Part shown: piece after piece, positions 10,128-53,916 of the stretch
How the letters are laid out: each line of letters starts with the position of its first letter
Position numbering within the stretch: the stretch's first letter is position 1
NCBI GenBank assembly: GCA_964478715.1
Contig: CAYZIY010000007.1
Span: forward strand, 20,220-84,219
DNA from: an uncultured Planctomycetales bacterium
GTDB taxonomy: Bacteria > Omnitrophota > Gorgyraeia > Zapsychrales > JBDRMG01
DNA length: 64,000 nt
Reading direction: 5' to 3'
Translations under genes and position numbers: made by a program
Notes under the pieces: model-generated
Databases searched by the model: none
What the model was told of the DNA's origin: nothing
The model's input: the letters and a program-made list of their open reading frames with translations, nothing else

Positions 10128-10169
10128 CTTTACGAAGTTCGTTTTAAAAACTATAATAAGAACATTATC

Positions 10170-11607: not shown

Positions 11608-11618
11608 GACAGGGGAGC

Positions 11619-12040: not shown

Positions 12041-12049
12041 GACCGTATA

Positions 12050-12979
12050 TTGAGCTCAAAAATGAACTTATCCGTCCACATAGGAAAACTAAAACTAAAG
12101 AATCCGGTGACTGTTGCCTCCGGAACGTTTGGTTATGTCGACGCCTATTGCGATACTAAAAAACTCAGTCGGCTCGGCTGCCTGATTCCCAAGACTGTCA
12201 CACTCAAGGCTCAGCAAGGCAATCGGCCGCCTCGGATATGTGAAACCGCTTCGGGGATGCTCAATGCCATAGGAATTGAAAATGAAGGAGTGGATTCTTT
12301 TATTAAGAATAAGATTCCATTTCTCAAAAAGATTGGCGTTCCTTTGATTATCAGTATTCTCGGTTATTCGGATCGGGAATTTTCCATCTTGACAGAAAAA
12401 CTTCAAGGCATTAAAGGCGTGAAAGCTCTCGAGGCCAATCTTTCTTGTCCTAATTTGAAACAAAAAGAACTTGTGGCTCAGGATCCCCGGGCAACTGAGA
12501 GGGTTATTCGCAAGATAAAAAAAGCCAGTCGTTTACCAGTAATAGCCAAGCTTTCTCCTAATGTTACCGATATTGTTTCCATTGCCAAGGCCGCAGAAGC
12601 TGCCGGAGCGGATGCTCTGAGTTTGATCAATACTTATCGGGGAATGGCGATTGACAGCAAGGGTCGGAAACCGGTCTTAGGTAATATCACCGGTGGATTG
12701 AGCGGGCCAGCCATAAAACCTTTGGCTTTACGGATTGTATTTGAGGCGGCCGCAAACGTGCAAATTCCCATTATAGCCATGGGCGGAATAACAAACGCGC
12801 AGGATGCGATTGAGTTCTTTTTAGCCGGGGCCACAGTTGTGGCTGTGGGGACCGCTAATTTCCTTAATCCCTTAACGCCTCTTATCGTTATTGACGGAAT
12901 AAAGAAATATATGAAAAAATATCAATATCGTGATATCAATGATTTGATTGGAGATCTTGAGTCCCATGACAGAAAATAA
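12050..12979 (+). CDS. pyrD: Dihydroorotate dehydrogenase (class 1B) catalytic subunit
   Basis: KLKNPVTVASGTFGY N-terminus, TIM-barrel motifs. Downstream of pyrK. Confidence 0.9.
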   Translation: MSSKMNLSVHIGKLKLKNPVTVASGTFGYVDAYCDTKKLSRLGCLIPKTVTLKAQQGNRPPRICETASGMLNAIGIENEGVDSFIKNKIPFLKKIGVPLIISILGYSDREFSILTEKLQGIKGVKALEANLSCPNLKQKELVAQDPRATERVIRKIKKASRLPVIAKLSPNVTDIVSIAKAAEAAGADALSLINTYRGMAIDSKGRKPVLGNITGGLSGPAIKPLALRIVFEAAANVQIPIIAMGGITNAQDAIEFFLAGATVVAVGTANFLNPLTPLIVIDGIKKYMKKYQYRDINDLIGDLESHDRK

Positions 12980-35786: not shown

Positions 35787-37786
35787 ATCGCTTAAAGCAA
35801 AAAGTTGAGAATGAAAAAAGACGCTATCTGCGGCTTGCGCATGTTTATCCTGTGGAATTTGCTTTTTGCAATTTGCAGGGCCAACTCATTTCTTCCTGGC
35901 AGCAGGGTTTTACCTGCAATATCAGTCAGGGCGGTATTTGTCTTAATGCGCAGGCCAGTTCTCTGGTAGTCGATCATCTAAAGGAAGAAAAAGAGCGTTA
36001 TCTTCGGCTCAAGATCAGTATTCCGCTTTTCTCTCCGCCGGTTGAGGCATTTTCTAAGGTTGCCTGGATGGCTCAGCAGACTGAATCTTATCCGAGAGGA
36101 TTTCTTATCGGTCTGCAGTTTTTGGAGATCCAGAAATCGCAAGCTAGACGGATGCTTAGATATGCGCGGATTATTAAACGCACGCCTCTGGTGATGGCCG
36201 CATTTATCTGTATTTTGTTTACTTTTCTAGCCGGGCATACCTACATGAATTATCGTCTGCGGATAAGTAATGAAGAACTGGTTCAGCAGTTTGTGTTCTT
36301 GCAAAGCGACCAGACGAAAAACCAGAACCGCCTGAAGACCATTCAAGGTGAGAAAACACTTCTGGCAGAAACCATCAATGATTATAATGCTGATATTCGC
36401 GATCTCAAGCGGGGGCTTGATCGCGCTCTTGGCGAAATTAATAGAAAGACACAGAACCAGAAAGTATTGCGCGATCAAGCCAATCAGCTGACACGAACTA
36501 TCGCCGAGCTTCAAACCAGGATTCAGCTTTTGGAGAGTGAAAAGGCCCCTTTAGCCAATCAGCTTGAGATTCTTGTGAAAAACGAAGAAATGATCCAGGA
36601 CCGATTAAGACTCATGGAAAGAAATAAGCGGGACTTAGAGAATGAAATTGTTGCCCAGATGATTCAGTGGCTTAAAAATCATCAAAATCAGTCGACTGGA
36701 CTGATTTCGAGTTTCGAGGGGCCGGTCGGTATCATCAAGCATTGGGCTTTTATTTACGATCAGGCCCTGGCCGCGAATGTCTTTCTTATTGATAATGATC
36801 TTAAGGCTTGCAAAAAGATTCTCAATTTCTTTGCCCGGAAAATGCAAAACGATTTTAATGGTTTTCATAATGCCTATTACAGCGATACTGAAGATATTGC
36901 CGAATTTACGATTCACAGCGGTCCCAATATTTGGGCTGGCATGGCTATTGCCCAGTATGCGGATCAAACAGGAGATCGCCAGTATTTGCCTTTGGCGCAA
37001 AAGATTGCCGATTGGCTTATTGCTTTACAGGAACAGGATAAAGACGGAGGTTTACGCGGAGGACCGGACGTTTTCTGGTATGCAACTGAGCATAATCTAG
37101 ATGCCTATGCTTTTCTTGACATGATGGCGAAGCTGACCGGTGAGGAAAAATATTATTTGGCCCAGAAAAAGATTTTGAGCTGGCTTGAAAAACATGCCAT
37201 GGTGGCTCATGAAAACGATCACCGCAAGCCGCCGGTAAAAAGAGGCCGCGGAGACGCCACAATCGCCACCGACACATTTGCCTGGTCCCTGGCTGCGATC
37301 GGCCCTCCCGTCTTGAGACAATTACAGATGGATCCTGAGGCGATCATGGCATTTGCCGAAAAACACTGCAAAGTCCAAACAAGATTTCGCCGACCCAGCG
37401 GAGTAGTTATTGATGTAGAAGGTTTTGATTTTTCCAAACCGGCTCATGTGGCTCGCGGTGGCATTCTTTCTCCGGAATGGACTTCTCAGATGATTGTCTC
37501 GTTTCAAATTTTGGCCGATGATTTCCAAAAGGAAAATGATTTAACCAAGACTGTTTTTTACCGTCAAAAAGCCGTCCACTATCTCAATGAACTCAATAAA
37601 CTGATTATATCGAGTCCTTCTCCGCGCGGGTTGGGTGAAGGATGTCTTCCTTATGCGACTGTCCCGCAGGCTGATACAGGTCACGGCTGGCGCACGCCCA
37701 AAGGGACAGATACCGGATCGATCGCTGGTACGGCCTATATGATTATGGCTATTTATGGCTACAATCCGTTGGAGCTGGGAGGCTAA
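35783..37786 (+). CDS. PilZ-domain / TM / coiled-coil / (alpha/alpha)6-barrel-like multidomain protein
   Basis: N-terminal RRYLRL...NISQGGICL (PilZ RxxxR and D/NxSxGG), a second PilZ-like half, a TM helix, about 150 aa of coiled coil, and a C-terminal region with six-hairpin-glycosidase-like composition. ATGA overlap with the M48 gene. Confidence 0.5.
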   Translation: MNRLKQKVENEKRRYLRLAHVYPVEFAFCNLQGQLISSWQQGFTCNISQGGICLNAQASSLVVDHLKEEKERYLRLKISIPLFSPPVEAFSKVAWMAQQTESYPRGFLIGLQFLEIQKSQARRMLRYARIIKRTPLVMAAFICILFTFLAGHTYMNYRLRISNEELVQQFVFLQSDQTKNQNRLKTIQGEKTLLAETINDYNADIRDLKRGLDRALGEINRKTQNQKVLRDQANQLTRTIAELQTRIQLLESEKAPLANQLEILVKNEEMIQDRLRLMERNKRDLENEIVAQMIQWLKNHQNQSTGLISSFEGPVGIIKHWAFIYDQALAANVFLIDNDLKACKKILNFFARKMQNDFNGFHNAYYSDTEDIAEFTIHSGPNIWAGMAIAQYADQTGDRQYLPLAQKIADWLIALQEQDKDGGLRGGPDVFWYATEHNLDAYAFLDMMAKLTGEEKYYLAQKKILSWLEKHAMVAHENDHRKPPVKRGRGDATIATDTFAWSLAAIGPPVLRQLQMDPEAIMAFAEKHCKVQTRFRRPSGVVIDVEGFDFSKPAHVARGGILSPEWTSQMIVSFQILADDFQKENDLTKTVFYRQKAVHYLNELNKLIISSPSPRGLGEGCLPYATVPQADTGHGWRTPKGTDTGSIAGTAYMIMAIYGYNPLELGG

Positions 37787-40606
37787 ATGCGAAAGAAGGA
37801 AATAACAGAAAATTTAACTATGTGTTTGTTTGCGATTTTTTTTCTGTCTAGCGCAAAACCTCTCATGGCCTTTGAGCATCCTGCTTATACAATCAAGGCC
37901 CAACTGGATGTCTCAAGCAAACAGCTTGAGGTTCAACAAAAGGTTCGTTTCAGTAATCAATCGGCTAGAGCAGTCGAAGCCATCTATTTCCATGTTTATC
38001 CCAACCGAATTTTCTCAAAGGCCGAAAAAGTTTTCATGCAGCAGTATGCCAGTTATTTCAAAGTTGATCCCTTTCCGGATGGTTTTCAGCAGGGAAAGGT
38101 GGTATTCGGTTCGATTTTCGCAGAAAACCGGAATCTAAACTTTTCTTACGAAGGCGAAGATCAAACGCTTCTGAAAGTCGAATTGGACCAAGTTCTGGCA
38201 CCCGGTTCATCCGTAGAGGTCAATATGGAATATCAGCTAAGAATTCCCCATTCCTACGGTCGTTTTGGCTGGCATAATGATATTATTGCTCTCTCGCGAT
38301 TTTATCCGATTTTAGCTGTTTTATCCGATGAGGGATGGAATAAAAATCCATTCTATCCCTTTCACCGGCCCTTTTATTCTGAAGCCGCTTATTATCAGGT
38401 GCAACTGACTATGCCGTCCTCATGGGAAGCGATTCATAGCGGGGTTCTCAAAAAAGAAAAACAAAACGGCGCCAATAAACAGCTCGTGATTGAATCGGAC
38501 CATCCTATTCGCGAATTTACTGTTGCGCTAAGCCCTGATTACCGTTTAATCGAAAAAAAAATTGAGGGTGTTACGGTGAAGTCGTTTTACCTTCCAGGTG
38601 ATCGAGACCGTGCCAGTGAGGCCCTTTCCCATGCCGCGGATCTTATGAAATTTTATGCGGATCTTTTCAAACCTTATCCTTATGCGCAATTTAGCATCGC
38701 GCCGGTTTATCTGGGTTATGGTGGAGAACAGATGTCCAATATGATCTTGATCGATACCCGGGTTTATCAACTCCCCAGAATTCTCGATCGCCATTTCGAA
38801 TTTTTGATTGCGCACGAAACCGGTCATCAATGGTTTTATAATCTGGTGGGGATTGACGAGTTTCATCACATGTGGCTGGAAGAAGGGGTCAATTCCTATT
38901 TTATTTTGCAATATCTCGAAGATAAATACGGAGACAATGCGAAAGTCATCGAATGGCCCAGGCCGCTTGAGTGGTTTCTGCCCAGTTTTTCTTTCCGGCG
39001 CGCTCGCGATTTCCGATATAAAATGATTGCCCGCACGAAGATGAATTATTCGCTCTCCGGAAAACTATCGAGCTTCAAAGAGCCCAGCAGTATTTTTTCG
39101 ATTGCTTATGGAAAAGGATCGGCGGTTGTGGCTATGCTCAAAAGCGTTGCGGGCAGAGAGGCTTTTAGGAAAATTTTCCAGAGAATTTTTAAGCAATATT
39201 CCTATAGGAATCTTAGCTTGAGAGAATTTCAAGATATCTGCCATCATGAAAGCCAAATAGATTTGGAATATTTCTTTGATCAATGGTTGACGACTACCCA
39301 TAACTGTGATTATGCGGTCAATGGCATCAAAGACGCGAAGGTATTGATTGAAAACAGAGCCTCAATCGAAATGCCGCTTGATGTAAGAATCGATTATCAG
39401 GACGGGAATTCAAAGACAATCCAAACCGGCTTTGATGATCAGGTCAAAAATGTATTTGTCAATCCGCGAAAAAAAATTAAGAGAATTATTCTGGATCCGC
39501 AAAAAGAAATCTTGGATATTGACCGTACCAATAATATTTGGCCGCGACGTATTCACATCAAGGTGGTGCCTTTGTATTTGCCTGTTCACGATTTAGCCAT
39601 CACGCTTCCCGAAGATTCTTATAATGTGGTGATCGGTCCTGAGACAAGCGGCGGCGGCTTAGGCTTAAAGGCCTCTTTGCAGAAACCCATGGACTGGATG
39701 AGTTATGCGGCGACAACGTATGAATTCCGTGAGAGCATCCAGCACACTCGAGGGGGCTTTGTGCTCAAGAATGTCGCCCATCAGATGAATTCTCTAGGAT
39801 TTGAACTATTCAATAAATCCGATTATGACGGCGGTGATCAGGATTTGGTCGGCGGGAAGGTTTTTTTCAGAAGAGAATTAAAACTGGCTGCCTATAGCCT
39901 GAGTGATCTCAATGATCATGTGAGCCTTTATTTTCTGCGCAATCAGAGCCTCAATCGCGGGGCCTTAAGCGCGCAGGAAGATGAGCGCAATATTTCTTAT
40001 TTGAAAAAGAATGAAGCGATTTGGGGTACGGCGCTTCATCTGGCTTCCTGTGGGCCTCATCCGGATCCGCGTCAGGGCTATCGGGCCGATCTTATTTTAG
40101 AGAACTCAAACCATATTCTGGGAGGCACACAGTTCTTTTACAGAGGATCGGCAGATTTCAGTTATTACTATCCGTTGGCATTTAAATCCAAGCTGGCTTT
40201 TCGTCTGAAATACGGCTGGGGGTTTCCCGACGATAAAAATCTCTATGAACTCGGAGGATGGGACGGGTTAAGAGGATATGACCGTAAGACTTTGCGCGGC
40301 TCGCATGTGGCCCTGGGCGCTTTAGAGCTTCGTTTTCCGCTTCTTCAGAATATCAATGTATCTTTTGCGGATAATATTTTGCGGCTGGATGAAATCTCGG
40401 GCGTTGTTTTTGCCGAGACCGGCCAGAATTGGTTTGATGATATGGATGAAACAACTTTAAGAAAAGATGCCGGCGGGGGACTGCGTTTTATTTTCAGTGT
40501 CGGTTCATTTCTTGAAAAAGTGATGGTTCGAGTGGATGTGGCCCAGGCGATTAATGACAGCAGCGAAGAGACAAAAGTGTGGGCTGGCGTGAATCATGCT
40601 TTCTAA
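37787..40606 (+). CDS. Secreted M1-family zinc aminopeptidase domain fused to a C-terminal Omp85/bacterial-surface-antigen beta-barrel
   Basis: Signal peptide. HETGHQWFYNLVGIDEFHHMWLEEG equals the gluzincin HExxH-x18-E with WLxEG. The C-terminal block YYPLAFKSKLAFRLKYGWGF...ELGGWDGLRGY...ALELRFPL matches the PF01103 barrel motifs. Confidence 0.6.
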   Translation: MRKKEITENLTMCLFAIFFLSSAKPLMAFEHPAYTIKAQLDVSSKQLEVQQKVRFSNQSARAVEAIYFHVYPNRIFSKAEKVFMQQYASYFKVDPFPDGFQQGKVVFGSIFAENRNLNFSYEGEDQTLLKVELDQVLAPGSSVEVNMEYQLRIPHSYGRFGWHNDIIALSRFYPILAVLSDEGWNKNPFYPFHRPFYSEAAYYQVQLTMPSSWEAIHSGVLKKEKQNGANKQLVIESDHPIREFTVALSPDYRLIEKKIEGVTVKSFYLPGDRDRASEALSHAADLMKFYADLFKPYPYAQFSIAPVYLGYGGEQMSNMILIDTRVYQLPRILDRHFEFLIAHETGHQWFYNLVGIDEFHHMWLEEGVNSYFILQYLEDKYGDNAKVIEWPRPLEWFLPSFSFRRARDFRYKMIARTKMNYSLSGKLSSFKEPSSIFSIAYGKGSAVVAMLKSVAGREAFRKIFQRIFKQYSYRNLSLREFQDICHHESQIDLEYFFDQWLTTTHNCDYAVNGIKDAKVLIENRASIEMPLDVRIDYQDGNSKTIQTGFDDQVKNVFVNPRKKIKRIILDPQKEILDIDRTNNIWPRRIHIKVVPLYLPVHDLAITLPEDSYNVVIGPETSGGGLGLKASLQKPMDWMSYAATTYEFRESIQHTRGGFVLKNVAHQMNSLGFELFNKSDYDGGDQDLVGGKVFFRRELKLAAYSLSDLNDHVSLYFLRNQSLNRGALSAQEDERNISYLKKNEAIWGTALHLASCGPHPDPRQGYRADLILENSNHILGGTQFFYRGSADFSYYYPLAFKSKLAFRLKYGWGFPDDKNLYELGGWDGLRGYDRKTLRGSHVALGALELRFPLLQNINVSFADNILRLDEISGVVFAETGQNWFDDMDETTLRKDAGGGLRFIFSVGSFLEKVMVRVDVAQAINDSSEETKVWAGVNHAF

Positions 40607-44054: not shown

Positions 44055-46916
44055 TTACATTTCTTTCGGTTGAGTTAAGAGAATTTCGTCATCCGGGGTC
44101 AGAGCCAGCGGGTGATAATCCCAGGTATTTCCGCTTAAGGCCGAGGCGGCCGTGGCATTTAACGGCAGTTCCACAGAAAGAATTTCCGAAATAAAAACAA
44201 GGTCTCCCGGAGGTCGGCTACTTGAGAGCAGATAGCTGATATCGTAAATTTTTCTCGGCTCGCCATTAAAACTCAGCAAATCCCAGGGGGCCGCTTCTGT
44301 GACACCAAACGCCGATTGTCCTGACTGATCACGTCCGCGAACCCAGTAGGCGGAATGCCCCGAAAAATTATCTATTAAATTCTGTGGTTCCGGTGACAAT
44401 GCGCTGAAAGGAATAGGATTCTCCGTATATGACTGGTCCCAGTATCTGCTGTTGGGCTCAATCGGGCCGTGAAGAGGCCGGAATTCATTACCCAGCTGGA
44501 TGAAAGATCCGGTAACAACAGGTTCATTTTGATGCCAGCAGGATAAAGGATCTCCGCCGCAAGGCGGGGTTAAGTGATCTCCGGGATCGCTGTGAAAATT
44601 CCAGAGTTCTTCGGTGACATGCGGATCCCAGGCTCTGGGCCCAATAAGAGAGATATTATAATTAATCACATTGTTGCCAGAACTGTCTTCAACGGTCCCC
44701 TCGACGAAATTGGGCATTTGCGGCTCATCGGGATTTTCATCATCCGGAAACATATCATAAAGATAATTGTAGCCATCCTGGCCGTTTTCATCAAAGGCAT
44801 AATCGGTCTCAAAACCGGATCCTTCCGGTAGAGTGATATAGACAGCTGAAGCGGGATTGATAGGAGAGACTACTGTTTCTGCGTAAGGATAGTCTGGATG
44901 ATGATGCGGCATGCGCAGATAGCGGGGATAGCGAAAGCCTTCGCTTACTAAAAAGACATCATCGCTGACAATGGCGGCCGAGGGTTTTCGGGCATTTGTA
45001 TTGTAATGACCTTCCAGAATCAGATCGCCATGGATGACGAAGGTGGCTCCGTTGGGGGCACCGTCTTTTTGAGGGAGTTCTCCGGCATTATACACGGCAG
45101 CACCGACGTAATACTGCCTTTGATCCCCTTCGGATTCGATAAATTGTACGTCAGAAATATATAGCCCGTTTTCAGGCAGCCAGTCTGAAGAATCATTGGC
45201 CGCGCAGTCTTTCAAGGCCGACATGTTTGTTCGCAAAACTGTCATGGGAAGCCCGTCGACATGCCGGATAAAACTGCGCAGTTCAAAAAGGCTCTCTTCG
45301 TCTGATCCGCATTCTATCGGGGGAGCAATGGACCGATTCTCATAAGGGTTGTCAAAATCGAAACGCAGATCCGTATCATCGGTAACGGGAATTCCGTTTA
45401 CGCTGACTTCGAGGTAATAAGTACCGTTTTTTTCTTTGGCTGCGGCCACAAAGGCCTGGTCCGAATTTTTATTGAGAATCGAGTTCAGATTCATTTCAGG
45501 CGGGCTGATGGTGCTGACATCATCCTGGAACACTCCGGCGAGTCCTTCAATTCTATAAGGGGTATCTTCTCCGGAAGGATAATTTCGATTGATGCTTTCA
45601 CTGAAGGCAAAAAATTCCGGTTGCTTTTCGGAATCTGTCAACTGCATGCCGGTCACCCGCGGATCGCCCGGCGCATGACGGCCCATATACATGAATCTGT
45701 CATTGTAAGCGGTGCCAAAACGATTGGGGAGATAATAGTCGTTGATCTTGGGCATCGCCTCGTAATAATTTTCGTTATTGGAAGTTCCGTCGGCGCAGGT
45801 ATTTGTTGAATGGCAATTGATATCCTGCTGCCAGTACACATAGGCCCGGCTTTCTGACGACCCGTCCCAGGCCCCCGCATCAAACGGTGGATTTAAAAAT
45901 GGTGTCTGCGGCCAGGGCCAGATTGGCAGATTGTTGGATTCTTGGTCCCATTCGACGAATTTGCCTGTAGCGGTATCAAAGGCCAGCAAGCCCTGTCTGT
46001 CACCGGCATAATGGCCGTCCATTTTATTGATATAGTTTTCCTGATCCCACAGCCATCTATCTAGTGTATCGTTAGGTAAAATCAGAGGTCGGCGCAGATG
46101 GGGATAGATATTTGTATAATCATGACTATCGACTGCTCCTCCGCTGACAGGATCATATACCTGGCCGTCGATAAAATCATCAGGATGGACAAAGGGCGAG
46201 AAGGCATAGGAAATCTTTCCGGTGGCCTTAAGCTCATCCACGTTTTCGATGATGGTGTAATCATTCAAAAGGATATTGCCGTTAGTGTGGATTTTTCCGC
46301 CCTGGGCGTTAAGCAGCTGCCATCCGAGAGAGAGGTCTTCGTTGTTAAACAGGGCATATTGAAACATATCGGTGATTTCTATTTTCATGGCAAAAAGGCG
46401 GGTCACCGTATTATGAATGCCCAGAGCCAGGACATAGAGAGCGTTCTCATTGTCTTTACAATATGTTTTTAGGGCAAAAAGAGGATGGCCGTTTTCATCC
46501 AGCGCTCCGTAGTCAATAGAATCAATACCCCGGCTCACCAAATAAGGGAAATCATCAGCCGATAACTGGTGGTTAAATACAATACCGGGGATGTCGGAAT
46601 CTGTCGGGCAATTATCAACACAATGTTCAAGCGCGTTATTTTCGGTATTGAGAATATGGGTGGTGAATTCACCTGTGGATATCGATGCATTATTTTTGAT
46701 TTCATGATAGGCGTATTCTACGCCTTTACGGGCATGCAATTCCGCGGCCAAACTGTCATGCAGGATATGCCCTTGATTATTGCCCGAGACAGCCCGGGCA
46801 AAATTGGCCGCGGCATAGGTGACCACCAGGATCAAGACAGGATACAAAACCAGCGAGAAGGCGATGCCTTTTTGATTCTTTTTTCTTTGATCTTTTTTTA
46901 AAATTATTTGGCTCAT
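44055..46916 (-). CDS. Giant (953 aa) secreted or pilus-associated protein with a TadE/TadG-like pseudopilin N-terminus. Paralogue of 49211-52015
   Basis: N-terminal KGIAFSLVLYPVLILVVTYAAANFARAV resembles the TadE-like anchor (RGAAAVEFALVLPVLLLLLFGIVEFG). Shared blocks with the paralogue include KIHTNGNILLNDYTIIENV...FVHPDD, ILEGHYNTN...SEGFRYPRYL..HHPDYPYAE and a C-terminal PWDLLSFN. Confidence 0.6.
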   Translation of the reverse strand: MSQIILKKDQRKKNQKGIAFSLVLYPVLILVVTYAAANFARAVSGNNQGHILHDSLAAELHARKGVEYAYHEIKNNASISTGEFTTHILNTENNALEHCVDNCPTDSDIPGIVFNHQLSADDFPYLVSRGIDSIDYGALDENGHPLFALKTYCKDNENALYVLALGIHNTVTRLFAMKIEITDMFQYALFNNEDLSLGWQLLNAQGGKIHTNGNILLNDYTIIENVDELKATGKISYAFSPFVHPDDFIDGQVYDPVSGGAVDSHDYTNIYPHLRRPLILPNDTLDRWLWDQENYINKMDGHYAGDRQGLLAFDTATGKFVEWDQESNNLPIWPWPQTPFLNPPFDAGAWDGSSESRAYVYWQQDINCHSTNTCADGTSNNENYYEAMPKINDYYLPNRFGTAYNDRFMYMGRHAPGDPRVTGMQLTDSEKQPEFFAFSESINRNYPSGEDTPYRIEGLAGVFQDDVSTISPPEMNLNSILNKNSDQAFVAAAKEKNGTYYLEVSVNGIPVTDDTDLRFDFDNPYENRSIAPPIECGSDEESLFELRSFIRHVDGLPMTVLRTNMSALKDCAANDSSDWLPENGLYISDVQFIESEGDQRQYYVGAAVYNAGELPQKDGAPNGATFVIHGDLILEGHYNTNARKPSAAIVSDDVFLVSEGFRYPRYLRMPHHHPDYPYAETVVSPINPASAVYITLPEGSGFETDYAFDENGQDGYNYLYDMFPDDENPDEPQMPNFVEGTVEDSSGNNVINYNISLIGPRAWDPHVTEELWNFHSDPGDHLTPPCGGDPLSCWHQNEPVVTGSFIQLGNEFRPLHGPIEPNSRYWDQSYTENPIPFSALSPEPQNLIDNFSGHSAYWVRGRDQSGQSAFGVTEAAPWDLLSFNGEPRKIYDISYLLSSSRPPGDLVFISEILSVELPLNATAASALSGNTWDYHPLALTPDDEILLTQPKEM

Positions 46917-46942: not shown

Positions 46943-47812
46943 TCAGCGTATTTCTTTAGGCGCCGTTCGGCAGTCATCAGGGCAAGTTACTGATGTTTCA
47001 TCACCGCTGCAAATTCCGTCACCGCAGCGCGTGCAATCTTCCGGACAGCTTATGGCGGTTTCATCACCGTTACACATTTCGTCACCGCAATGTTGACAAT
47101 CTTGAGCACAATTGTCCGGGTCTTCATCAATGTCGCAGTTTCCATCGCCGCAAAAAGTTTGAGGCTCACAATCCGCGGGGCAGGTGGTTTCGCTCTCAGT
47201 GGCATCGCAGACGCCGTCACCGCAGACCACACACACGCCGCAGTCCTGAGGGCAGGAATAACAGTCTTCGGATTGGTCACATTTATCATTGCCGCAGAAC
47301 TCGCAAGTGGTCATATCTTGCTGACAGTTTTCGCAGGTTTCGTCGGGGTCTTCTATGCCGTTTCCGCAGTCCGGCAGTTCATCGCAGTCCTGGGGGCATT
47401 CTTCGAACGTTTCGCGGATATCGCATAGGCCGTTACCGCAGAGAATGGAGGTATAAATATTATCGATATCATTAAGCTGAACTTTTGTTTCGATGTTCAT
47501 GGCTCTGATAGAGGGATAAAGCTCTTGATCGGGTGTGATTTTGATGTGCACCGTCTGGTTACTCAAGTTTCGGGTTACTTCCAGAGAATCAGCCACACCC
47601 AGAGTGCGCCACGAGCGGATTTCGGGGTCAGGAACCTCATCCGCGCCGGTTTGCATCCCGCCGCCAGGTTGGCCGCCTCCGGGGAGGCTATCCGCCCAAG
47701 ATGTCGCCGATGCGAGGCTTATGCAAAACCAAACGATTAAAAAGAAAAAGACGCTAAAAAAGGAAAGATTTTTTGCTAGGATGTTTATCTTGAATGTTTT
47801 CATTGAGAGCAT
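46943..47812 (-). CDS. Secreted cysteine-rich repeat protein with about 7 tandem CGDGxC-x8-10-CPxDC modules
   Basis: Signal peptide MKTFKINILAKNLSFFSVFFFLIVWFCISLASA. Repeats include CGNGLCDIRETFEECPQDC, CGDGVCDATESETTCPADC, CGDGNCDIDEDPDNCAQDC and CGDGICSGDETSVTCPDDC. The ORF-track N-terminal extension into the upstream gene is probably spurious, so the start is uncertain (47812 or 47803). Confidence 0.55.
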   Translation of the reverse strand: MLSMKTFKINILAKNLSFFSVFFFLIVWFCISLASATSWADSLPGGGQPGGGMQTGADEVPDPEIRSWRTLGVADSLEVTRNLSNQTVHIKITPDQELYPSIRAMNIETKVQLNDIDNIYTSILCGNGLCDIRETFEECPQDCDELPDCGNGIEDPDETCENCQQDMTTCEFCGNDKCDQSEDCYSCPQDCGVCVVCGDGVCDATESETTCPADCEPQTFCGDGNCDIDEDPDNCAQDCQHCGDEMCNGDETAISCPEDCTRCGDGICSGDETSVTCPDDCRTAPKEIR

Positions 47813-47819
47813 GTTCTTT

Positions 47820-48905
47820 CTATTTTTCATTATTTTCTGGACCCTCATTATGGACAATAATCCCATCGGCGATATACGTATGCAGAGGATTGACGACAAA
47901 ATTATAGCTTGTAACTGTTTCATGAATTTCGTCGATCGAATTAATGCGAAAGTCACGGCCTTGTTCATCGGTCAGAAAGTCTCCTATCCGCAAAGTGTCC
48001 AACCGCACATAACGGCCCCGGCTTAAGACCGGATGATTAGGAGAGACTTTGATCGAATCATTGATGATCCAGTATTTATGAGTATTATTGTGCGACAGGG
48101 TGCCTGTGACACGGTCGGGTTGAAATTTTTGACTGGAAGCATCGAAGGCCAGAACGATATCCCCGACAGCGATATTTTCAATTGGCTTGGTGGATCCCCC
48201 GGCCATCGTGATTTTGGTCCCGGCCAGAAAACAGTTTCCGGCGCCGCAGGTTCCACAGTCGGCGCTGCACGAGCAGGCGGTCTCTCCGGCCTCACCACAG
48301 CAGACCCCATCCCCGCAGACAATTGCCCCGCACTCCGCGCAATTGCACACACTTTCTCCTCGGGTGGATTCACAGACCCCGTCACCGCAGCAATCGGTGC
48401 CGGTGGCTATATAATCTTCCTCGCACCAGGAGCAGTCTTCACCAAGATCCACATCTACTTTGCCGTCTCCGCAGAAATCTTCGTAACAAAGCACCCGCTC
48501 TATCAATTGCCCGTCGGTTGCGCCGCCGGAAGCCACATAATATTCATAATAACAACCGATATCATTAAGCGCGCCGAATTTAATATTGTCGTATTCATTA
48601 ATATAGCTTTCGCCGACTTTGGTGGGAATTTTAAAGCGGATCAGATGGCCCGAGCACGGGGGAGAATCCAATTCGTCACAGTTTTTGATGGTAACCATTT
48701 TGATATCCGATTGGCTAAGTATATTGGCCATACGCCCGACCGCATTACGGGCATCGGAGACCTGCTGAATAGCTTCATCCGCGATCTTGTAGCTTTCGCG
48801 TGTTTGAATCAAGGATGTGGCAAAGGCCCCGCCGATGATCACCAGAATAGTCATCACGGCCAGGATCTCAGTCAGGGTAAAGGCGTTTATTCTAAAGATT
48901 TTCAT
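47820..48905 (-). CDS. Type IV pilin/pseudopilin-like protein with extracellular Cys-rich repeats and a C-terminal Hint (bacterial intein-like) domain
   Basis: MKIFRINA-FTLTEILAVMTILVIIGG is a class III signal with Glu at +5. Repeats CGDGKVDVDLGEDCSWC, CGDGVCESTRGESVCNCAEC, CGDGVCCGEAGETACSCSADC. Hint block CFLAGTKITMAGG...IAVGDIVLAFD...VSPNHPVL...HTYIADGIIVHN ending in HN then E. Confidence 0.65.
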   Translation of the reverse strand: MKIFRINAFTLTEILAVMTILVIIGGAFATSLIQTRESYKIADEAIQQVSDARNAVGRMANILSQSDIKMVTIKNCDELDSPPCSGHLIRFKIPTKVGESYINEYDNIKFGALNDIGCYYEYYVASGGATDGQLIERVLCYEDFCGDGKVDVDLGEDCSWCEEDYIATGTDCCGDGVCESTRGESVCNCAECGAIVCGDGVCCGEAGETACSCSADCGTCGAGNCFLAGTKITMAGGSTKPIENIAVGDIVLAFDASSQKFQPDRVTGTLSHNNTHKYWIINDSIKVSPNHPVLSRGRYVRLDTLRIGDFLTDEQGRDFRINSIDEIHETVTSYNFVVNPLHTYIADGIIVHNEGPENNEK

Positions 48906-49107
48906 TGCCGGCTCCTAAACAAAAAACCCATCCGCAAAGGATGGGTTTTAAAGAGTTGACAGTATGTTGGCGGCCAGGCTGTCTCACCGATTAAATCGGC
49001 GGACCCTATAGCTTTGCGTCCTATCCTTGCGGATTCCGCTGAAAACTTAAGCGGATCTACCGTTGTTAGCGGCGGAAGTTTACCTTTATCAGCATCTAAT
49101 AGTACTC
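48906..49107 (-). promoter_or_regulatory. Conserved structured 5' leader RNA (copy 1) with a terminator-like hairpin abutting the RBS. Candidate riboswitch or attenuator
   Basis: Minus-strand reading: ...GCGGAATCCGCAAGGATAGGACGCAAAGCTATAGGGTCC...GCCAACATA...AAAACCCATCC-TTTGC-GGATGGGTTTTTTGTTT-AGGAGCCGGCA-ATG. Homologous to copy 2 (53659-53916) with compensatory stem changes. Confidence 0.45.
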
Positions 49108-49150
49108 TAGGATAAGTATAACACATAGATATGTCCCGACAAGAAGAGCA
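49108..49150 (-). promoter_or_regulatory. Sigma70-like promoter (TTGTCG, 18 nt, TGTGTTATACT extended -10) driving leader copy 1
   Basis: The -35, spacer and extended -10 arrangement is conserved with copy 2 (TTGTCC, 17 nt, TGTGTTATACT). Confidence 0.4.
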
Positions 49151-49210: not shown

Positions 49211-52015
49211 TTATGTGGGGGGTTCGTATTTATTTCTCCAATGATCAGAAGTCCATGCAATTTCCACTACCCTTGATCGCAAACCCAGCATCTCTCCGGG
49301 AGGGTAGATCGGATCCGCAAGCCCTTCCCGGCGCAGATAATCCTGATCGTATTCATGGGCCGGCTGGGGATTGCTGGCCAAAAGGTCCCAGGGAGTCGAT
49401 TTATTATCTGTAGCCCGGCAAGGATGGGGATCCTTATCGGAGTTCCATCCAATCTGGGTATCTAAGTCAGAAAAGGGAATGGCAAAGTTCTTGTAAGAAT
49501 TCTGGTTGCAATCTCGGTTGTTGGCCGTCGTGGGAACCAGGCCGACAGGAGGAAACTCATTACCCAGTTGAATGACCGAGCCGATAATAACCGGCTGGAT
49601 TTCCGTCCAGCTGGAAGGGTCGGGAGCATTAAGGAGATCTCCAAGTTCTGTATAATAAGACCAGCGTTCCAAGAGATCAGGGTCAGGGGCATATTTTCCG
49701 ATCAAAGAGACATTATACACATAAGAATTCGGAGTTTCGGGGTCATTATCATGATCGACTGGGCCGATCGTATCCTGATCGGATTCCCAGGGTACTTTGT
49801 TTGCCATATTGCCATCTTGTTCTGCGAGCCAGTTGGCAACGCCTGGAATAAAATCGGCACGGAAACCATGTCCATCCTGGTTAAACTCTTCAAAATCCAT
49901 TCCACTTAATTCTGCTTCGGGATAGGACGGATGATGCTGGGGCCACGTTAATTTCCGGGGATAATCAAAATCTTCGGAAACTAAAGAGATTCTATTGGAG
50001 GCAATGATGGCTGCCGATTGCTTGGTCCAATCAGCATAGCCAGCATCAGCCTCATGGACATAATTGACATGGCCTTCCAAAATGGCATTATTGGCAATAA
50101 CGGTTAGTCCTCCTTGGGGCAATTGCCGCGCGTTGTAGAGCGCTACTCCGATCGGCTTGTCCGTGACCTGTGGAGAGTCTGCGGCAATAATGATCCCGCT
50201 CGAAGGCAGAAAATTTGGCTGTCCGCCTTCAGGAGGATTAACGACGCCAAATTGATGACAGCGATTTAAGTGTTCGATATTCATGCGAATCGTATTCTCG
50301 GGCAGTCCCGATTTGGGATTGATGAATTCTTTTTTTTCAAAGAGAGTGTCATTTATATCTTCGGAGCAATTTAGATCTGCGCAGCATCTTTCGTTTTTCA
50401 TCCATGAAGTCGTATCGTTTAATTTGATACTATTATTTCCCACATTGATAATATATTCTTTAAGCGCGCTTTCTTCAATCTCTTGCTCGATAGTCATTTG
50501 AATTTGTCCCGCACTGTGGCTGGATGAGTCACTTGAACTGTTGATTGTCTTTAAGGTATCAAGATGTATTTGGGGCACGGTGATTTCTTCAACACCGTCT
50601 GTGCTGTCCTTGAGCACATTAATTTGATCTTCCACAACGGCTGCCAGGCCTGTGATGGTGTCGTCTAAGGGATTATCCGGATCATCGCCTTGATCTATTT
50701 CAATGGGAAAATGGGACACATAATTATCCCAGTCCGACTCTTGATCAACAGAGTCGGTTAACCGGACAGGGGCTGTAAGATTACGTCCGTAATAAACTTC
50801 TTTATCATAGGGGGAGGAATCCGGCAGGATACTGGGAATAAAGTAACCGTTGATCTTGACATTGGCTTCATAATAGTTGGCATTATTATTTCCGTAAGGA
50901 TCTTGCCAGGCGCATGTATTTGTTTCATAACAACTGAGATCTTGTTCCCAATAGGAATTAACGAGGGTATTATGCCATTCAGGTTTATTATTAATCCAGC
51001 TTCCTTCATACCACATATTTTGATCACCCCAAGCAGGATCCCATATATAAGGAGAAGTGTCTTCCGGCACAGGTGCCGTGAAATTCGTATCCCAATAAAA
51101 AGGCCAGACGGGTTGCTTAATGTCCTGTGTTATTGTCTCTCCCTTCCAGGGGATAATACCATTTGTTGACATACGAAAAAGCCCCCGACGCATCCCTGGA
51201 TAATGGCCGTCCATGCTGTTGACATAATTGCCTTGGTTTAGTCCCACAGGAACCACTTCACCGCCCGAATAGGTTAAGTCATTCGGGTTAACGTGCGGCC
51301 AACGTCTGGTCTGATACTTGTTTTTATCATCCGGGTGGACAAAAGGTGTCATTTCCCATTCAAATTTTCCTGCTGTTGATATTTCACTGACATTTTCGAT
51401 TTCCACAAAATCATTGAATTTAATTTTCCCGTTGGCGTGGATTTTCGCCTGGCCGGCATTGATTTTTTTCCATCCGAAATCCGCATCATTCGAGTAAAAG
51501 GCCAGATAATCAAAAAGAGGCGTTCCTTTTATGATCCCCACAAAAAGACGGGTTTGGCCTTCTCTGTTGGTTTCTGCGAAACTGGTTGATTTCACTAGCG
51601 CATAATAGGCCCCGTCTTCCATGTAGACTTTAGCTTGGAAAATACTTCCCGTTTCTTCGTCACGAACCTGATACACATAGTCTTCGTTTTTATTAATCTG
51701 GGCGTCGGGAACATACAAATCAGCGGTGGCCGGCGGGTCATCGTGGGGGGCCAATGTGTCAGTCCCTGCTGCGATTTTGTGTGTCAGAAACGGATTACTG
51801 GTATATTGCCGGGCGGCAATTTCGGCAAAGACATATTCCACGCCGCTCATGGCGGTCATCTCGGTTTGATTGCGGGTATAAATCCGCCGGAAATGACGGG
51901 TATTATGCGTAGATTGCACAAAAACCGTTATTCCGTATCCTGCCAGCAGAATCAACAGAGGCAGGACAATCACATTCATGAGAAATTGTCCGTTTTTGTT
52001 TGAAATGCGTATCAT
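49211..52015 (-). CDS. Giant (934 aa) secreted or pilus-associated protein with a TadE/TadG-like N-terminus. Paralogue of 44055-46916
   Basis: N-terminal NGQFLMNVIVLPLLILLAGYGITVF (TadE-like). Conserved blocks as listed for the paralogue. RBS AGGGAGA upstream. Confidence 0.6.
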   Translation of the reverse strand: MIRISNKNGQFLMNVIVLPLLILLAGYGITVFVQSTHNTRHFRRIYTRNQTEMTAMSGVEYVFAEIAARQYTSNPFLTHKIAAGTDTLAPHDDPPATADLYVPDAQINKNEDYVYQVRDEETGSIFQAKVYMEDGAYYALVKSTSFAETNREGQTRLFVGIIKGTPLFDYLAFYSNDADFGWKKINAGQAKIHANGKIKFNDFVEIENVSEISTAGKFEWEMTPFVHPDDKNKYQTRRWPHVNPNDLTYSGGEVVPVGLNQGNYVNSMDGHYPGMRRGLFRMSTNGIIPWKGETITQDIKQPVWPFYWDTNFTAPVPEDTSPYIWDPAWGDQNMWYEGSWINNKPEWHNTLVNSYWEQDLSCYETNTCAWQDPYGNNNANYYEANVKINGYFIPSILPDSSPYDKEVYYGRNLTAPVRLTDSVDQESDWDNYVSHFPIEIDQGDDPDNPLDDTITGLAAVVEDQINVLKDSTDGVEEITVPQIHLDTLKTINSSSDSSSHSAGQIQMTIEQEIEESALKEYIINVGNNSIKLNDTTSWMKNERCCADLNCSEDINDTLFEKKEFINPKSGLPENTIRMNIEHLNRCHQFGVVNPPEGGQPNFLPSSGIIIAADSPQVTDKPIGVALYNARQLPQGGLTVIANNAILEGHVNYVHEADAGYADWTKQSAAIIASNRISLVSEDFDYPRKLTWPQHHPSYPEAELSGMDFEEFNQDGHGFRADFIPGVANWLAEQDGNMANKVPWESDQDTIGPVDHDNDPETPNSYVYNVSLIGKYAPDPDLLERWSYYTELGDLLNAPDPSSWTEIQPVIIGSVIQLGNEFPPVGLVPTTANNRDCNQNSYKNFAIPFSDLDTQIGWNSDKDPHPCRATDNKSTPWDLLASNPQPAHEYDQDYLRREGLADPIYPPGEMLGLRSRVVEIAWTSDHWRNKYEPPT

Positions 52016-52054
52016 GAGTTATTTTTCTCCCTCTCGAGATTGATCCTAATTACT

Positions 52055-52783
52055 TCATTCGGGTTCTCCCCAGTTATTGAATTCACAATTAAGTTCTTGT
52101 CCGCCTTCGGCTACATAGATCGACAAATCAACAAGGTCTGATATGTTGATTCCGTATTCATTACCTCCGCTACCTGAATTATTAACATTGGCGCGCTCGG
52201 GGTCTTCGGGAGGCGGGCAGATTGTATTTGGTGGCTCTGTTTCAGTACAGGCATCACTGCCTTCAGCACAACAGTTGGGCAGATCACCAAACATATAAGC
52301 GGATAATAAATCTAGGTCCGCTTTATTGACTATTCCGTCTCCGGTGAGCTCTCCGCATTCCGGGGCCGGCGGGCAGTCTTGAGCGCACCATTGCGAATTT
52401 TCGCTGGGGGGATCGCAAAAACCATCCCCGCAGACGGTAATGGTCAGAGGATCCGAGTCATTATCCGGATAAACAGTGGTGCTGAGCTTAATTTCCCCGC
52501 CTGATGGATAAGAGGAAGAGCTTATCTCCGGTTGAGCGGCGTAGAAACCGATCTGGACTGTTTTTGGGATATAGGTTGTGGAAAAAGTACCCTTTTCGAT
52601 GCGGCTGGCGATTACCTGAGAGGAGCGCACGGTTTCGACTGGTTGGGCGTAGGCAATTTGACCGCCTATAAGGAAAATCCAAAAAAAGACAGTTATCCCG
52701 ACAACCATCACAAATAGCATACTGAGAAAGGGCCTAATCTCATTTAACGTTTTTACATTAGGATAATCCATTAATCTAATCAT
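52055..52783 (-). CDS. Signal-anchored small protein with one Cys-rich repeat and a dockerin-like calcium-binding repeat pair
   Basis: TM anchor FLSMLFVMVVGITVFFWIFLIGG. CGDGFCDPPSENSQWCAQDC repeat. TGDGIVNKADLDLLSAYMFG and NNSGSGGNEYGINISDLVDLSIYV fit the dockerin D-x-D/N-x-DG-x-V/I-N-x2-D-x3-L-x2-Y pattern. Strong RBS AAAGGAG. Confidence 0.55.
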   Translation of the reverse strand: MIRLMDYPNVKTLNEIRPFLSMLFVMVVGITVFFWIFLIGGQIAYAQPVETVRSSQVIASRIEKGTFSTTYIPKTVQIGFYAAQPEISSSSYPSGGEIKLSTTVYPDNDSDPLTITVCGDGFCDPPSENSQWCAQDCPPAPECGELTGDGIVNKADLDLLSAYMFGDLPNCCAEGSDACTETEPPNTICPPPEDPERANVNNSGSGGNEYGINISDLVDLSIYVAEGGQELNCEFNNWGEPE

Positions 52784-52815
52784 CGCACGACTCCTTTTAT
52801 GGTTTTCTTTCTGTC

Positions 52816-53658
52816 CTATCTGTCCACGGGGGTCTCTCCGGTATCACAGTCGGCTGCGCAGGAAGAAACCGTTTCTCCGATACTGGCATCGCAAAAGCGG
52901 TCACCGCACCAGCCGAAATTCTCTTGTGCGGCCGCGACCTGATTTTCGCAGATACCGCAGTCGGCCGGACATTTTAAGCAATCTTCATGGATATCACAGA
53001 ATCCGTTCGGGCAGCAGACACCTCCGCAATCCTCAGGGCAGGACAGGCAGTTTTCTCCCAAATCCTCTTCAGGGTTGGGACCGCCAGTTTCCGGAATGCC
53101 GTCTTGGCAGATTCGGTCGCCGCAGGTACAGCGGTCTTCGCAATCAGGAAAACAGGTGTCGCAGTCTTCGCCGTAGTCTTCATTACAAGTACCATCGCCG
53201 CAATAGGGCTGGCTTTCATCGCAAATAACCTGTTTGTAGAGTTGATTGTCATTGACCAAGTATCTGTACCAGCAATATTGGTAACATTCATTCTCAGAAA
53301 TACAAGCGCCGAAAGCGACTCGGCCGTCATTGATTTCTAATGTATCCACAATAGGAGTTTTGAAGATTAAATAACTTCCTTGACAGACCGGCTCTCCCTC
53401 TTCGGGGCATGGATGGTGAACCGGAGCGCCCGGTTTATTGCTCTGGGGGGGCACCGACTGCTGAACATGGGCAGCGACACGCTGTAAAATATTTTCCAGA
53501 TGAATATTTTGATCGCTGCGGATTTTCGATATAATCGACGCCTGCATTCCTTTTTGCGCGGCAGCCGAAATCCCGCCGATGACAATGACCGAAGCCGCGA
53601 TGGAGACGACAAGCTCGGTTAGCGTAAATGCTTCTTTATTTTTTGTGTATCTTTTCAT
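52816..53658 (-). CDS. Type IV pilin/pseudopilin-like protein with 4 extracellular Cys-rich repeats
   Basis: MKRYTKNKEA-FTLTELVVSIAASVIVIGG prepilin-type N-terminus. Repeats CGDGTCNEDYGEDCDTCFPDC, CGDRICQDG...CLSCPEDC, CPNGFCDIHEDCLKCPADC, CGDRFCDASIGETVSSCAADC. The ORF-track start at 53712 would translate through the leader hairpin. The ATG at 53658 has RBS GGGAGAAG. Confidence 0.6.
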   Translation of the reverse strand: MKRYTKNKEAFTLTELVVSIAASVIVIGGISAAAQKGMQASIISKIRSDQNIHLENILQRVAAHVQQSVPPQSNKPGAPVHHPCPEEGEPVCQGSYLIFKTPIVDTLEINDGRVAFGACISENECYQYCWYRYLVNDNQLYKQVICDESQPYCGDGTCNEDYGEDCDTCFPDCEDRCTCGDRICQDGIPETGGPNPEEDLGENCLSCPEDCGGVCCPNGFCDIHEDCLKCPADCGICENQVAAAQENFGWCGDRFCDASIGETVSSCAADCDTGETPVDR

Positions 53659-53916
53659 GTCTTCTCCCAATTTCTGTTGTAACCGAAAAAAATCCCACTC
53701 CTTAAACTTCAAGGAATGGGTTTATCCGTTTTGTTGGCAGCTGGCTGCCCCTCTGCTTTCTTGCCTGCCTTTCAGAAAACAAGCGAAAACAAGAAGCGGG
53801 GTCCTTTAGCTTTGTGCCCCATCCTTGCGGTCCCGCGTGGGTTTCTCGCGGGATCTCCGGTCTCAAAGGATTGCAGGCCGGAGAATAGTTTACCTTTTTC
53901 AACACCAATGAATTGT
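53659..53916 (-). promoter_or_regulatory. Conserved structured 5' leader RNA (copy 2) with a terminator-like hairpin abutting the RBS
   Basis: Minus-strand reading: ...CCCGCGAGAAACCCACGCGGGACCGCAAGGATGGGGCACAAAGCTAAAGGACCCC...GCCAACAAA...AAACCCATTCCTT-GAAGTTT-AAGGAGTGGGATTTTTTT-CGG...GGGAGAAGAC-ATG. Confidence 0.45.

Follow-up and report, generated by a model that had tools for sequence, protein, structure and literature searches.

What can a Hint domain accomplish at the very end of a protein that begins like a filament subunit? The question is raised by a gene in the window, by which we mean the whole 64,000-nucleotide stretch of DNA analyzed here (contig CAYZIY010000007.1 of GenBank assembly GCA_964478715.1, positions 20,220 to 84,219, from an uncultured Planctomycetales bacterium that GTDB places in the Omnitrophota). 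Bacterial intein-like (BIL) domains have been known since 2003, and their biological purpose is still unclear. Judged by its sequence, the Hint domain of the 361-aa protein encoded by this gene is a type-A BIL, a known family (Pfam PT-HINT clade), and comparison with homologous loci shows that it is an add-on, present in some copies and absent from others, to a cassette of hypervariable surface proteins, a typical BIL setting. The explanation that we regard as probable is that the protein is minor-pilin-like and that, after export, the Hint domain would excise itself through a thioester formed at Asn224-Cys225, leaving a mature pilin-like protein. The gene, its terminal domain and the tail behind it are the following:

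47820..48905, minus strand: Hint-pilin gene, 361 aa (pilin-like, Cys-repeat and Hint parts), open reading frame (ORF) intact
47847..48233, minus strand: predicted Hint domain (type-A BIL / PT-HINT), residues 225-353, 129 aa, from PF07591, a profile match in the Protein Data Bank (PDB) and AlphaFold2/Foldseek
47823..47846, minus strand: C-terminal tail EGPENNEK ('C-extein'), 8 residues with Glu at +1, read directly from the sequence

A sequence-only reading of this DNA had placed a Hint domain at residues 225-353, opening with a block A that contains ...IAVGDIVLAFD. Both points held: the residues read CFLAGTKITMAGG...IAVGDIVLAFD...IKVSPNHPVLS...SYNFVVNPLHTYIADGIIVHN and translate exactly from nucleotides 48233..47847, and PF07591 (Pfam PT-HINT) aligned to residues 239-353 with an E-value of 8.9e-13 and 49.1 bits against a gathering threshold of 27.7, which lies far beyond chance. 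This was the sole Pfam model above its curated threshold on the domain; five further Hint models (Hom_end_hint, Intein_splicing, Hint, Hint_2 and Vint) gave sub-threshold matches at the domain ends. Among them, Pfam Hint (PF01079) reached 22.0 bits against 29.7, and Hint_2 (PF13403), the model that had been suggested for checking the assignment, reached 20.0 bits against 28.4, over the first 36 residues of the domain only (225-260).

The assignment to the BILs came from two comparisons with known structures. An alignment of 15 sequences, made of the window Hint domain and its nearest relatives, was used as a profile against the PDB sequences and found as best match 2LWY, deposited as 'bacterial intein-like domain' (E 1.4e-27), followed by 8W20 (the Hint of a Streptomyces Umb toxin), by BIL2 of the Tetrahymena BUBL protein (6Y75/6TMM) and then by ordinary inteins. 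The AlphaFold2 model had a predicted local distance difference test score (pLDDT) of about 90 or higher over residues 225-355, and a Foldseek search of the PDB with the modelled Hint returned first BUBL BIL2 (6Y75/6TMM, E 2e-12) and 2LWY (template modelling score, TM, 0.83). The top BIL matches had TM 0.77-0.83, mini-inteins came next and the Hedgehog Hint (1AT0, 6TYY) appeared only at ranks 27-36; all 50 best matches were Hint domains, with TM up to 0.83. The model thus predicts that the horseshoe-shaped beta fold of Hint domains is present, and the claim that a BIL-type Hint closes a pilin-like protein is borne out.

The residues expected for catalysis were nearly all in place. In the 15-sequence alignment, Cys at position 1 (Cys225 in the window protein) occurred in 14 sequences, the block-B His (His291) and the terminal His-Asn (His352-Asn353) were invariant, and the block-B Thr was present in 14, the window protein alone having Ser (Ser288, in Ser-Pro-Asn-His), which is a conservative change. 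Of the two motifs that the sequence-only reading had singled out for checking, the terminal HN was therefore found as expected, and TxxH was found in its His and not in its Thr. At the block-F position, where class 1 inteins have Asp, this Hint clade has Asn (Asn335), as does 2LWY. Conservation of Cys1, of the block-B His and of the terminal His-Asn extends to relatives of only 30-50% identity, which argues for selection on activity; the C-terminal tails after the Hint were not conserved across the family.

Within the Hint superfamily, type-A BILs are defined by a terminal His-Asn and the absence of a nucleophile at +1, and they yield mostly cleavage products (PMC4031507, PMC7664689). The window domain is placed among them because it has the terminal His-Asn and Glu354 at +1, in agreement with the published definition and with the earlier statement that a domain not followed by Cys, Ser or Thr is no splicing intein. 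Such domains lie in variable regions of non-conserved secreted proteins, and the placement of the Hint indeed varies among the cassettes described below. The stop codon lies slightly farther on than had been implied (about six residues after the Hint), the tail having 8 residues, Glu and seven more. Four other identities were rejected. A canonical (class 1) intein does not fit the Glu at +1, the C-extein of 8 non-conserved residues and the lack of an endonuclease domain in 129 aa. A pretoxin Hint would precede a toxin domain, and here there is only the 8-aa tail and, as the next gene, a Cys-repeat cassette member with a Sec signal and not an immunity gene. For a Hedgehog/Hog domain, nothing follows the Hint, so an adduct (sterol)-recognition region is absent, and PF01079 is sub-threshold. 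Type-B BILs are without block G (PMC4031507, PMC7664689, PMC7765530), and here the block-G His-Asn is present and PF13403 is sub-threshold. A recent horizontal origin of the Hint was also considered, and its GC content (46%, against 52% for the rest of the gene) was uninformative, the GC-rich Cys/Gly repeats accounting for the difference.

The part of the protein that carries the Hint consists of three segments:

48816..48905, minus strand: prepilin-type (class III signal peptide-like) N-terminus, MKIFRINA followed by FTLTEILAVMTILVIIGGAF; TIGR02532, Glu5 and an AlphaFold2 helix
48471..48905, minus strand: pilin-like module, residues 1-145, with conserved Cys76/Cys84 and the motifs G.LIRFK.P and FGA; homologous to the window paralogue and to loci L010, L021 and L129
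48234..48470, minus strand: three Cys-rich repeats CGDGxC...E...C..(D/E)C, residues 146-224, ending GAGN before the Hint; read directly

The N-terminus has the layout of a prepilin: the leader is basic, -1 is Ala, +1 is Phe, +5 is Glu, and there is a hydrophobic helix (MKIFRINA/FTLTE..., the slash marking the putative cleavage site). NCBIfam TIGR02532 scored 17.3 bits against a cut-off of 16.3 when the pilin module was searched alone and 15.7, below the cut-off, on the full protein; Pfam N_methyl stayed below threshold (14.7 against 21.2 bits), and the next-best NCBIfam matches were all pilin-like (Verru_Chthon cassette protein C, ComGD/E/F, GspG/H/I). In a profile of seven homologous pilin modules, Glu at mature position 5 was invariant (7/7) and the Cys pair was conserved, and all six PDB matches of this profile were type IV pilins (E 0.0013-1.7), reached solely through the alpha-1 helix. 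AlphaFold2 predicted a 55-residue helix (residues 11-65, pLDDT 70-83), with pLDDT below 50 for residues 69-222. The earlier description of the carrier as pilin-like is thus supported by the TIGR02532 score of the module and by profile matches restricted to type IV pilins; the term applies at the level of the N-terminal signature, and incorporation into a filament is only putative. The Cys repeats matched no Pfam family, and repeats of the same type were seen in the window paralogue, in the downstream gene, in proteins P0002 and P0003 and in L021 and L129. With the pilin module by itself as query (residues 1-158), a word-indexed homology search gave no matches; the module is too divergent for direct search, and its homologues were found only via loci fetched through the Hint.

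In public data an identical 361-aa protein is present (P0001), and a metagenome scan with the single full-length protein returned no relative. Among the GTDB species representatives there was no match at 100%. Relative cassettes were taken from loci that had been fetched via the Hint and via the large protein of the cassette. The nearest cassettes are those of L010, and the nearest Hints those of L002, L004 and L005; they suggest a putative Omnitrophota/PVC affiliation. Four loci carry the cassette family in addition to the window:

L129: syntenic, with Era nearby; one cassette copy; Hint absent throughout
L021: three cassette copies; terminal Hint, on the Cys-repeat protein
L010: Omnitrophota single-cell genome; three two-gene cassettes with three tandem Hints, one Hint and none on the pilin-like genes
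L056: metagenome; at least two cassette copies; one Hint on each of two pilin-like genes that flank a homologue of the large protein

The Hint was found in four of these five sources, on the pilin-like or on the Cys-rich partner. In L010 (4566..6600 and 8851..10183) and L056 (2132..3270 and 5433..6660) it is internal and interrupts the pilin fold like an intein. When a Hint-bearing paralogue of L010 is compared with a Hint-less one, a 190-aa insertion (Cys repeat, Hint and linker) stands between two alignable flanks, the N-terminal one with 58% identity over 147 aa and the C-terminal one with 48% over 63 aa. The internal Hints of L010 and L056 precede a C-terminal segment of about 85-90 aa ending ...LRN, which is contiguous in the Hint-less paralogue, and their +1 residue is Ser in one L010 Hint and Lys in the others. 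The Hint is dispensable for the cassette, because the window paralogue, the L129 cassette and one L010 paralogue are without it. Beside the Hint-less cassette of L129 we also observed, at 5209..12414, a 1,817-aa RHS/YD-shell toxin-like gene together with a HEPN / nucleotidyltransferase pair.

Altogether 10 prepilin-plus-Hint proteins were collected, including unrelated pilin-like carriers (P0012, of the H-X9-DG type, P0028, P0049, L007 and L050). The survey of 1,219 modular pilins by Raynaud et al. 2021 has a single IPR012902-PF07591 entry in its Dataset S1, without comment (PMC8179133). The architecture is thus rare and not unique.

The near-absence of a C-extein is no peculiarity of the window protein. 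In a profile search of clustered proteins, 72,128 cluster representatives matched with E <= 1e-3 and, of these, 1,630 with E <= 1e-30, the carriers ranging from Cys-rich secreted proteins of about 220 aa to surface proteins of more than 3,000 aa, in Omnitrophota, Planctomycetes-labelled metagenome-assembled genomes, Acidobacteriota, Patescibacteria, Thermoplasmata and DPANN archaea. The family consensus at the N-terminal junction is GG/CF, so that the usual -1 residue is Gly. Among 402 domains, the +1 residue was Lys in 61%, Cys, Ser or Thr in 12% and Glu in three. Tails of at most 30 aa after the last His-Asn were found in 15 of 37 proteins from genome loci, in 40 of 79 from metagenome loci and in 36 of 153 representatives, and 20 of the 79 metagenome-locus proteins end exactly in ...HNK before the stop, their C-extein being one lysine. 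Hints that practically lack a C-extein thus form a common, uncharacterized architecture, of which the window protein is an example. Proteins with the HNK end include those of L059, L080, L101, L104, L106, L109-L114, L118-L120, L122, L123, L125, L126 and L128. The top profile scorers were tandem arrays of 2-10 Hints; in P0015-P0163 the domains stand head to tail, joined by ...HNK(G)nC..., with 8 copies in P0015, 10 in P0100 and three in P0004.

How the protein might work can be pictured in the following steps. The gene would be transcribed under a GEMM-I cyclic-dinucleotide riboswitch with a terminator platform, and the prepilin-type helix would insert the protein into the inner membrane, with the Cys-repeat stalk and the Hint in the periplasm. 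Once folded, the Hint would carry out an N-to-S acyl shift at Asn224-Cys225, aided by Ser288 and His291, to give a thioester, a chemistry taken over from the family. This thioester would mainly be hydrolyzed, releasing the 129-aa Hint and leaving a mature protein that ends ...CGAGN, to the same extent as the Hint-less paralogue, and His352/Asn353 would cyclize and clip off the 8-residue tail. Alternatively, the freed alpha-amine may attack the thioester and give a spliced pilin-EGPENNEK product, a reaction for which type-A BILs offer a model (PMC4031507, PMC7664689). The net effect would be a C-terminal module that can be removed and a pilin C-terminus that is processed or activated, with no delivery of cargo.

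The domain has the fold and every residue that the N-S acyl shift and Asn cyclization require, and no cargo follows it. Since the tail has only 8 residues here, and short tails are common in the clade, the N-terminal junction would have to be the functional one. The sequence-only reading had proposed that the Hint cleaves or attaches cargo at a filament; because essentially nothing stands after the Hint, the carrier's own C-terminus is its only possible substrate, and this part of the proposal does not apply. A precedent for a C-terminal module that removes itself from a pilin is the self-cleaving S74 peptidase domain (IPR030392), present on at least 29 modular pilins (PMC8179133).

Several observations weigh against self-excision from a pilin-like protein. 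None of the other 14 aligned sequences has Ser in the place of Ser288, Asn stands at -1 instead of Gly, and Glu at +1 is as rare as given above; with Ser288, Asn224 and Glu354 all atypical, the kinetics could be poor or only one junction could be active. Cys225 could be trapped in a disulfide, given an oxidizing periplasm, a DsbA-like gene in the window and about 20 Cys upstream of it in the protein. AlphaFold2 gave no confident globular pilin fold, and no prepilin peptidase and no pilus or type II secretion system assembly genes lie within the 64-kb window. Finally, self-excision leaves unexplained why a 129-aa domain should be made and then discarded. The atypical residues and the oxidizing, Cys-rich compartment also weaken every other reading in which the Hint is an active enzyme.

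The main rival, which is unlikely, is a different fate of the same thioester, namely that it is attacked by an amine or a hydroxyl group on another molecule, so that the Hint acts as a ligase which covalently attaches the pilin-like C-terminus and is itself released. Possible acceptors are a Lys on a partner subunit, the N-terminal Thr or Ser of the Cys-rich protein after signal peptidase, an envelope component or a surface protein of a target cell. The best structural match of the domain, Tetrahymena BUBL BIL2, sets a precedent, as it is reported to make isopeptide bonds between the epsilon-amino group of Lys and a C-terminus on several substrates, ATP-free (PMC8616854), and the Hedgehog Hint transfers its N-terminal domain to a nucleophile by acyl shift alone (PMC7664689). 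From intein chemistry, a terminal Hint without a +1 nucleophile would be expected to hold a latent thioester. The recurrence of the Hint on either cassette partner would also fit a role within the complex, and Lys at +1 is strongly conserved in the family. Against ligation, no acceptor was identified and the window protein has Glu and not Lys at +1, published assays of type-A BILs yield mostly cleavage products (PMC4031507), and the Hint-less paralogues and the L129 cassette show that the cassette works without the domain. Carried one step further, the idea would turn the terminal Hint into a 'thioester warhead' of a filament-tip subunit, used once and without ATP: attack by an amine or hydroxyl nucleophile, on the Cys-rich or the ~950-aa cassette partner or on a host or prey cell surface, would couple the subunit to that molecule and set the Hint free, a prokaryotic and extracellular parallel to cholesterol transfer by Hedgehog and to isopeptide conjugation by BUBL. 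The clade ending ...HN or ...HNK (Omnitrophota, Patescibacteria, DPANN/Thermoplasmata) would then be a Hint-based system of C-terminal anchoring or ligation; this is a speculation to which we give little credence.

The variability that makes the Hint an accessory module also raises the improbable case of a neutral or selfish passenger that recombination has carried from one hypervariable surface gene to another, that is tolerated since its self-excision is good enough, and that adds nothing except variability of sequence and architecture. Its presence, its position (terminal or internal) and its copy number (1-3) differ among homologous cassettes, the interruption of the pilin fold in L010 and L056 resembles that made by an intein, and Hints on very different carriers are about equally related, at 40-64% identity; a role of BILs in the variability of secreted proteins has been proposed (PMC7765530). 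A passenger would not, however, account for the conserved catalytic residues, the +1 Lys and the many HNK ends, which suggest selection beyond harmless excision, nor for the recurrent link to a rare cassette, and no homing endonuclease or other mobility function accompanies the domain.

A decayed polymorphic-toxin module that has lost its C-terminal toxin is very improbable and largely refuted: PT-HINT is the best Pfam model and some distant relatives do have long C-terminal regions (P0013, P0014, and the Umb toxin 8W20), but the 8 residues after the Hint are followed by a cassette member in place of an immunity gene, short tails are conserved in the close clade, unlike in decay, and the ORF and its catalytic residues are intact. 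Equally improbable is a permanent non-catalytic binding or structural module on the filament, which would agree with the binding modules commonly grafted onto modular pilins (PMC8179133), with Ser in place of the block-B Thr and with the atypical -1 and +1 residues, but for which the retention of all nucleophile and general-base positions would be unneeded.

Self-excision of the Hint thus remains the reading that we favour, and its setting in the window is a three-gene unit of which the Hint-pilin gene is the first, followed by a Sec-signal Cys-repeat gene and a gene for a 953-aa protein; a Hint-less paralogous cassette lies immediately upstream:

46943..47830, minus strand: Sec-signal Cys-repeat secreted protein (295 aa), likely start ATG 47830 (MKNRKNML...); its homologue is gene 2 of L129, E 5e-24
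44055..46916, minus strand: large cassette partner of 953 aa, its N-terminus combining basic residues, a Gly and a hydrophobic helix; shares 29% identity with the 934-aa paralogue (E 1e-75)
49211..53658, minus strand: Hint-less paralogous cassette, with pilin-like gene 52816..53658, Cys-rich secreted protein 52055..52783 and 934-aa protein 49211..52015

A mechanically called ORF of the Cys-repeat gene starts at 47968 and overlaps the Hint gene; the likely start at 47830 opens MKNRKNMLSMKTFKINIL..., with a Sec signal and a predicted cleavage at ...SLASA/TSWADS. This ATG overlaps the stop of the Hint gene by 11 nt, which implies translational coupling. The 953-aa protein matched neither Pfam nor NCBIfam, Pfam recognized its N-terminus neither as PilX nor as pilin, and AlphaFold2 modelled it with a mean pLDDT of 30; its N-terminus bears a resemblance, which goes no further than that, to minor pilins lacking Glu5 and to GspK/PilX-like tip subunits. 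Its 934-aa paralogue likewise matched neither database and has an N-terminus of the same make-up. Homologues of the 953-aa protein were found in L010, L021, L056 and L129. Among 5.8 billion clustered proteins the protein of about 950 aa has one other, distant relative only, from which we conclude that the cassette family is rare or fast-evolving. The two pilin-like paralogues of the window are 31% identical (E 1e-19), the upstream one being without Hint and terminating after one more Cys repeat.

Some further observations concern the same cassettes and their surroundings. The Cys-rich protein at 52055..52783 (minus strand) combines a Cys repeat with a segment like a dockerin/EF-hand-like repeat, GDGIVNKADLDLL..., and a dockerin/EF-hand-like segment is also present in L021 at 4616..5400 (GDGQIDGWDLQMIV...DLNGDGVHNAFDIVMMINFL). 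A DsbA-like thioredoxin is encoded at 2500..3384 (plus strand), consistent with periplasmic disulfides in the Cys-rich cassette proteins. The other window genes are housekeeping ones (pyrimidine synthesis, V-type ATPase, Era, an Omp85-family protein and others). The last of these, a 939-aa protein at 37787..40606 (plus strand), is an unusual fusion of Peptidase_M1 with a C-terminal Omp85-family domain, and it is because of this domain that the organism is taken to have an outer membrane.

Both window cassettes are preceded by leaders with riboswitch-like elements:

48966..49094, minus strand: GEMM-I (cyclic di-GMP-I, c-di-GMP-I, class) aptamer candidate in the leader of the Hint-pilin gene; RF01051, 35.3 bits against a gathering threshold of 35, borderline
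48923..48949, minus strand: terminator-like hairpin, 11-bp stem and T-run, candidate expression platform, ending 13 nt before the Shine-Dalgarno sequence
49115..49142, minus strand: sigma-70-like promoter candidate upstream of the aptamer, weak, from a consensus scan only (9/12 and extended-TG)
53694..53903, minus strand: leader of the paralogous cassette, with a GEMM-I-clan aptamer match at 53732..53903 (RF03167, 31.2 bits, E 1.3e-5, below gathering) and a terminator-like hairpin at 53694..53720

The Shine-Dalgarno AGGAG lies 6 nt 5′ of the ATG of the Hint-pilin gene. On the leader of this gene the clan sibling RF03167 scored 34.5 bits, and the window aptamers have an insertion of 54-58 nt in the first hairpin. 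In L056, positions 2008..2087, directly upstream of the first pilin-Hint gene, matched RF03167 (c-di-GMP-I-GGC) with 63.6 bits against a gathering threshold of 59; in L010, positions 4451..4533, upstream of the three-Hint pilin gene, matched it with 45.3 bits; and at the start of L129 (1..100) the 3′ half of this aptamer stands ahead of a terminator. Terminator-like hairpins also follow the aptamers of L056 and L010. The borderline scores in the window gain support from this conserved position in L056, L010 and L129, and the comparison points to cassette arrays controlled by a GEMM-I-type cyclic-dinucleotide riboswitch. The presence of a GEMM-I element at the cassettes fits a role in surface appendages or adhesion. 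A single minimum-free-energy fold of the leader does not allow ON or OFF logic to be deduced. We also noted a 680-aa protein with an N-terminal PilZ (c-di-GMP receptor) domain at 35744..37786 (plus strand), consistent with c-di-GMP signalling.

Here a BIL stands in a well-defined setting that is open to experiment, a pilin-like surface cassette under riboswitch control, with its natural controls side by side: a Hint-less paralogue, a Hint-less syntenic orthologue, and internal and three-Hint tandem versions. As the C-terminus of the carrier is the sole possible substrate, cleavage and ligation can be directly tested against each other. Ligation, if true, would mean a new route to the building or anchoring of filament tips and would supply a natural tool for joining proteins; if there is cleavage only, Hint domains would be added to the few C-terminal modules that remove themselves from type 4 filament subunits. 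In either case an uncharacterized cassette family comes to light, composed of a pilin-like protein, a Cys-repeat protein and a domain-less protein of about 800-950 aa under GEMM-I-type control, and its hosts are bacteria of candidate phyla with a presumed life in attachment to other cells.

Compared with the riboswitches of the GEMM-I / c-di-GMP-I class (RF01051, RF03167), the window leaders are alike in the aptamer match, the 5′ position, the intrinsic-terminator-like hairpin and the location upstream of surface-appendage genes, and differ in the borderline score and the 54-58 nt hairpin insertion; in the relatives, the best model is the GGC variant (RF03167), for which, to our knowledge, no ligand has been established. 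With type-A BILs such as the one from Clostridium thermocellum (2LWY), the window Hint shares the fold, Cys1, the block-B His, the terminal His-Asn, the lack of a +1 nucleophile and a site in variable regions of non-conserved secreted proteins. It differs from those treated in the work of Amitai et al. 2003, Dassa et al. 2004 and Aranko et al. 2013, as cited through PMC4031507 and PMC7664689, in lying at the extreme C-terminus of a prepilin-type protein with an 8-aa C-extein, in the Ser of block B and in an activity that is so far predicted. BUBL BIL2 (6Y75/6TMM), the top structural match, is likewise a BIL that activates the C-terminus of its N-extein, but BUBL is eukaryotic and cytosolic, has ubiquitin-like flanks and is conjugated to Lys, whereas the window protein has no evident ubiquitin-like domain or acceptor Lys. 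The pretoxin Hint shares the Pfam model (PF07591), and the window protein lacks the downstream toxin domain and immunity gene. Hedgehog/Hog proteins also have a C-terminal Hint whose N-terminal thioester releases or modifies the N-terminal domain; the window Hint, in contrast, has no sterol/adduct-recognition region, keeps the terminal His-Asn and is structurally less close to them than to BILs.

Modular type IV pilins share with the window protein the combination of an N-terminal pilin module and a grafted C-terminal module, of which the S74 one is autoproteolytic (PMC8179133). The chemistry of the Hint, with its thioester and Asn cyclization, is unrelated to that of S74, and the survey neither discusses nor tests pilin-Hint proteins (PMC8179133). 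What is new with respect to all these systems is, first, that Hints recur on prepilin-type carriers belonging to a hypervariable cassette under riboswitch control; second, that homologous genes offer a natural series in which the Hint is terminal, internal, tandem or absent; and third, the recognition that near-zero C-exteins are common in this Hint clade.

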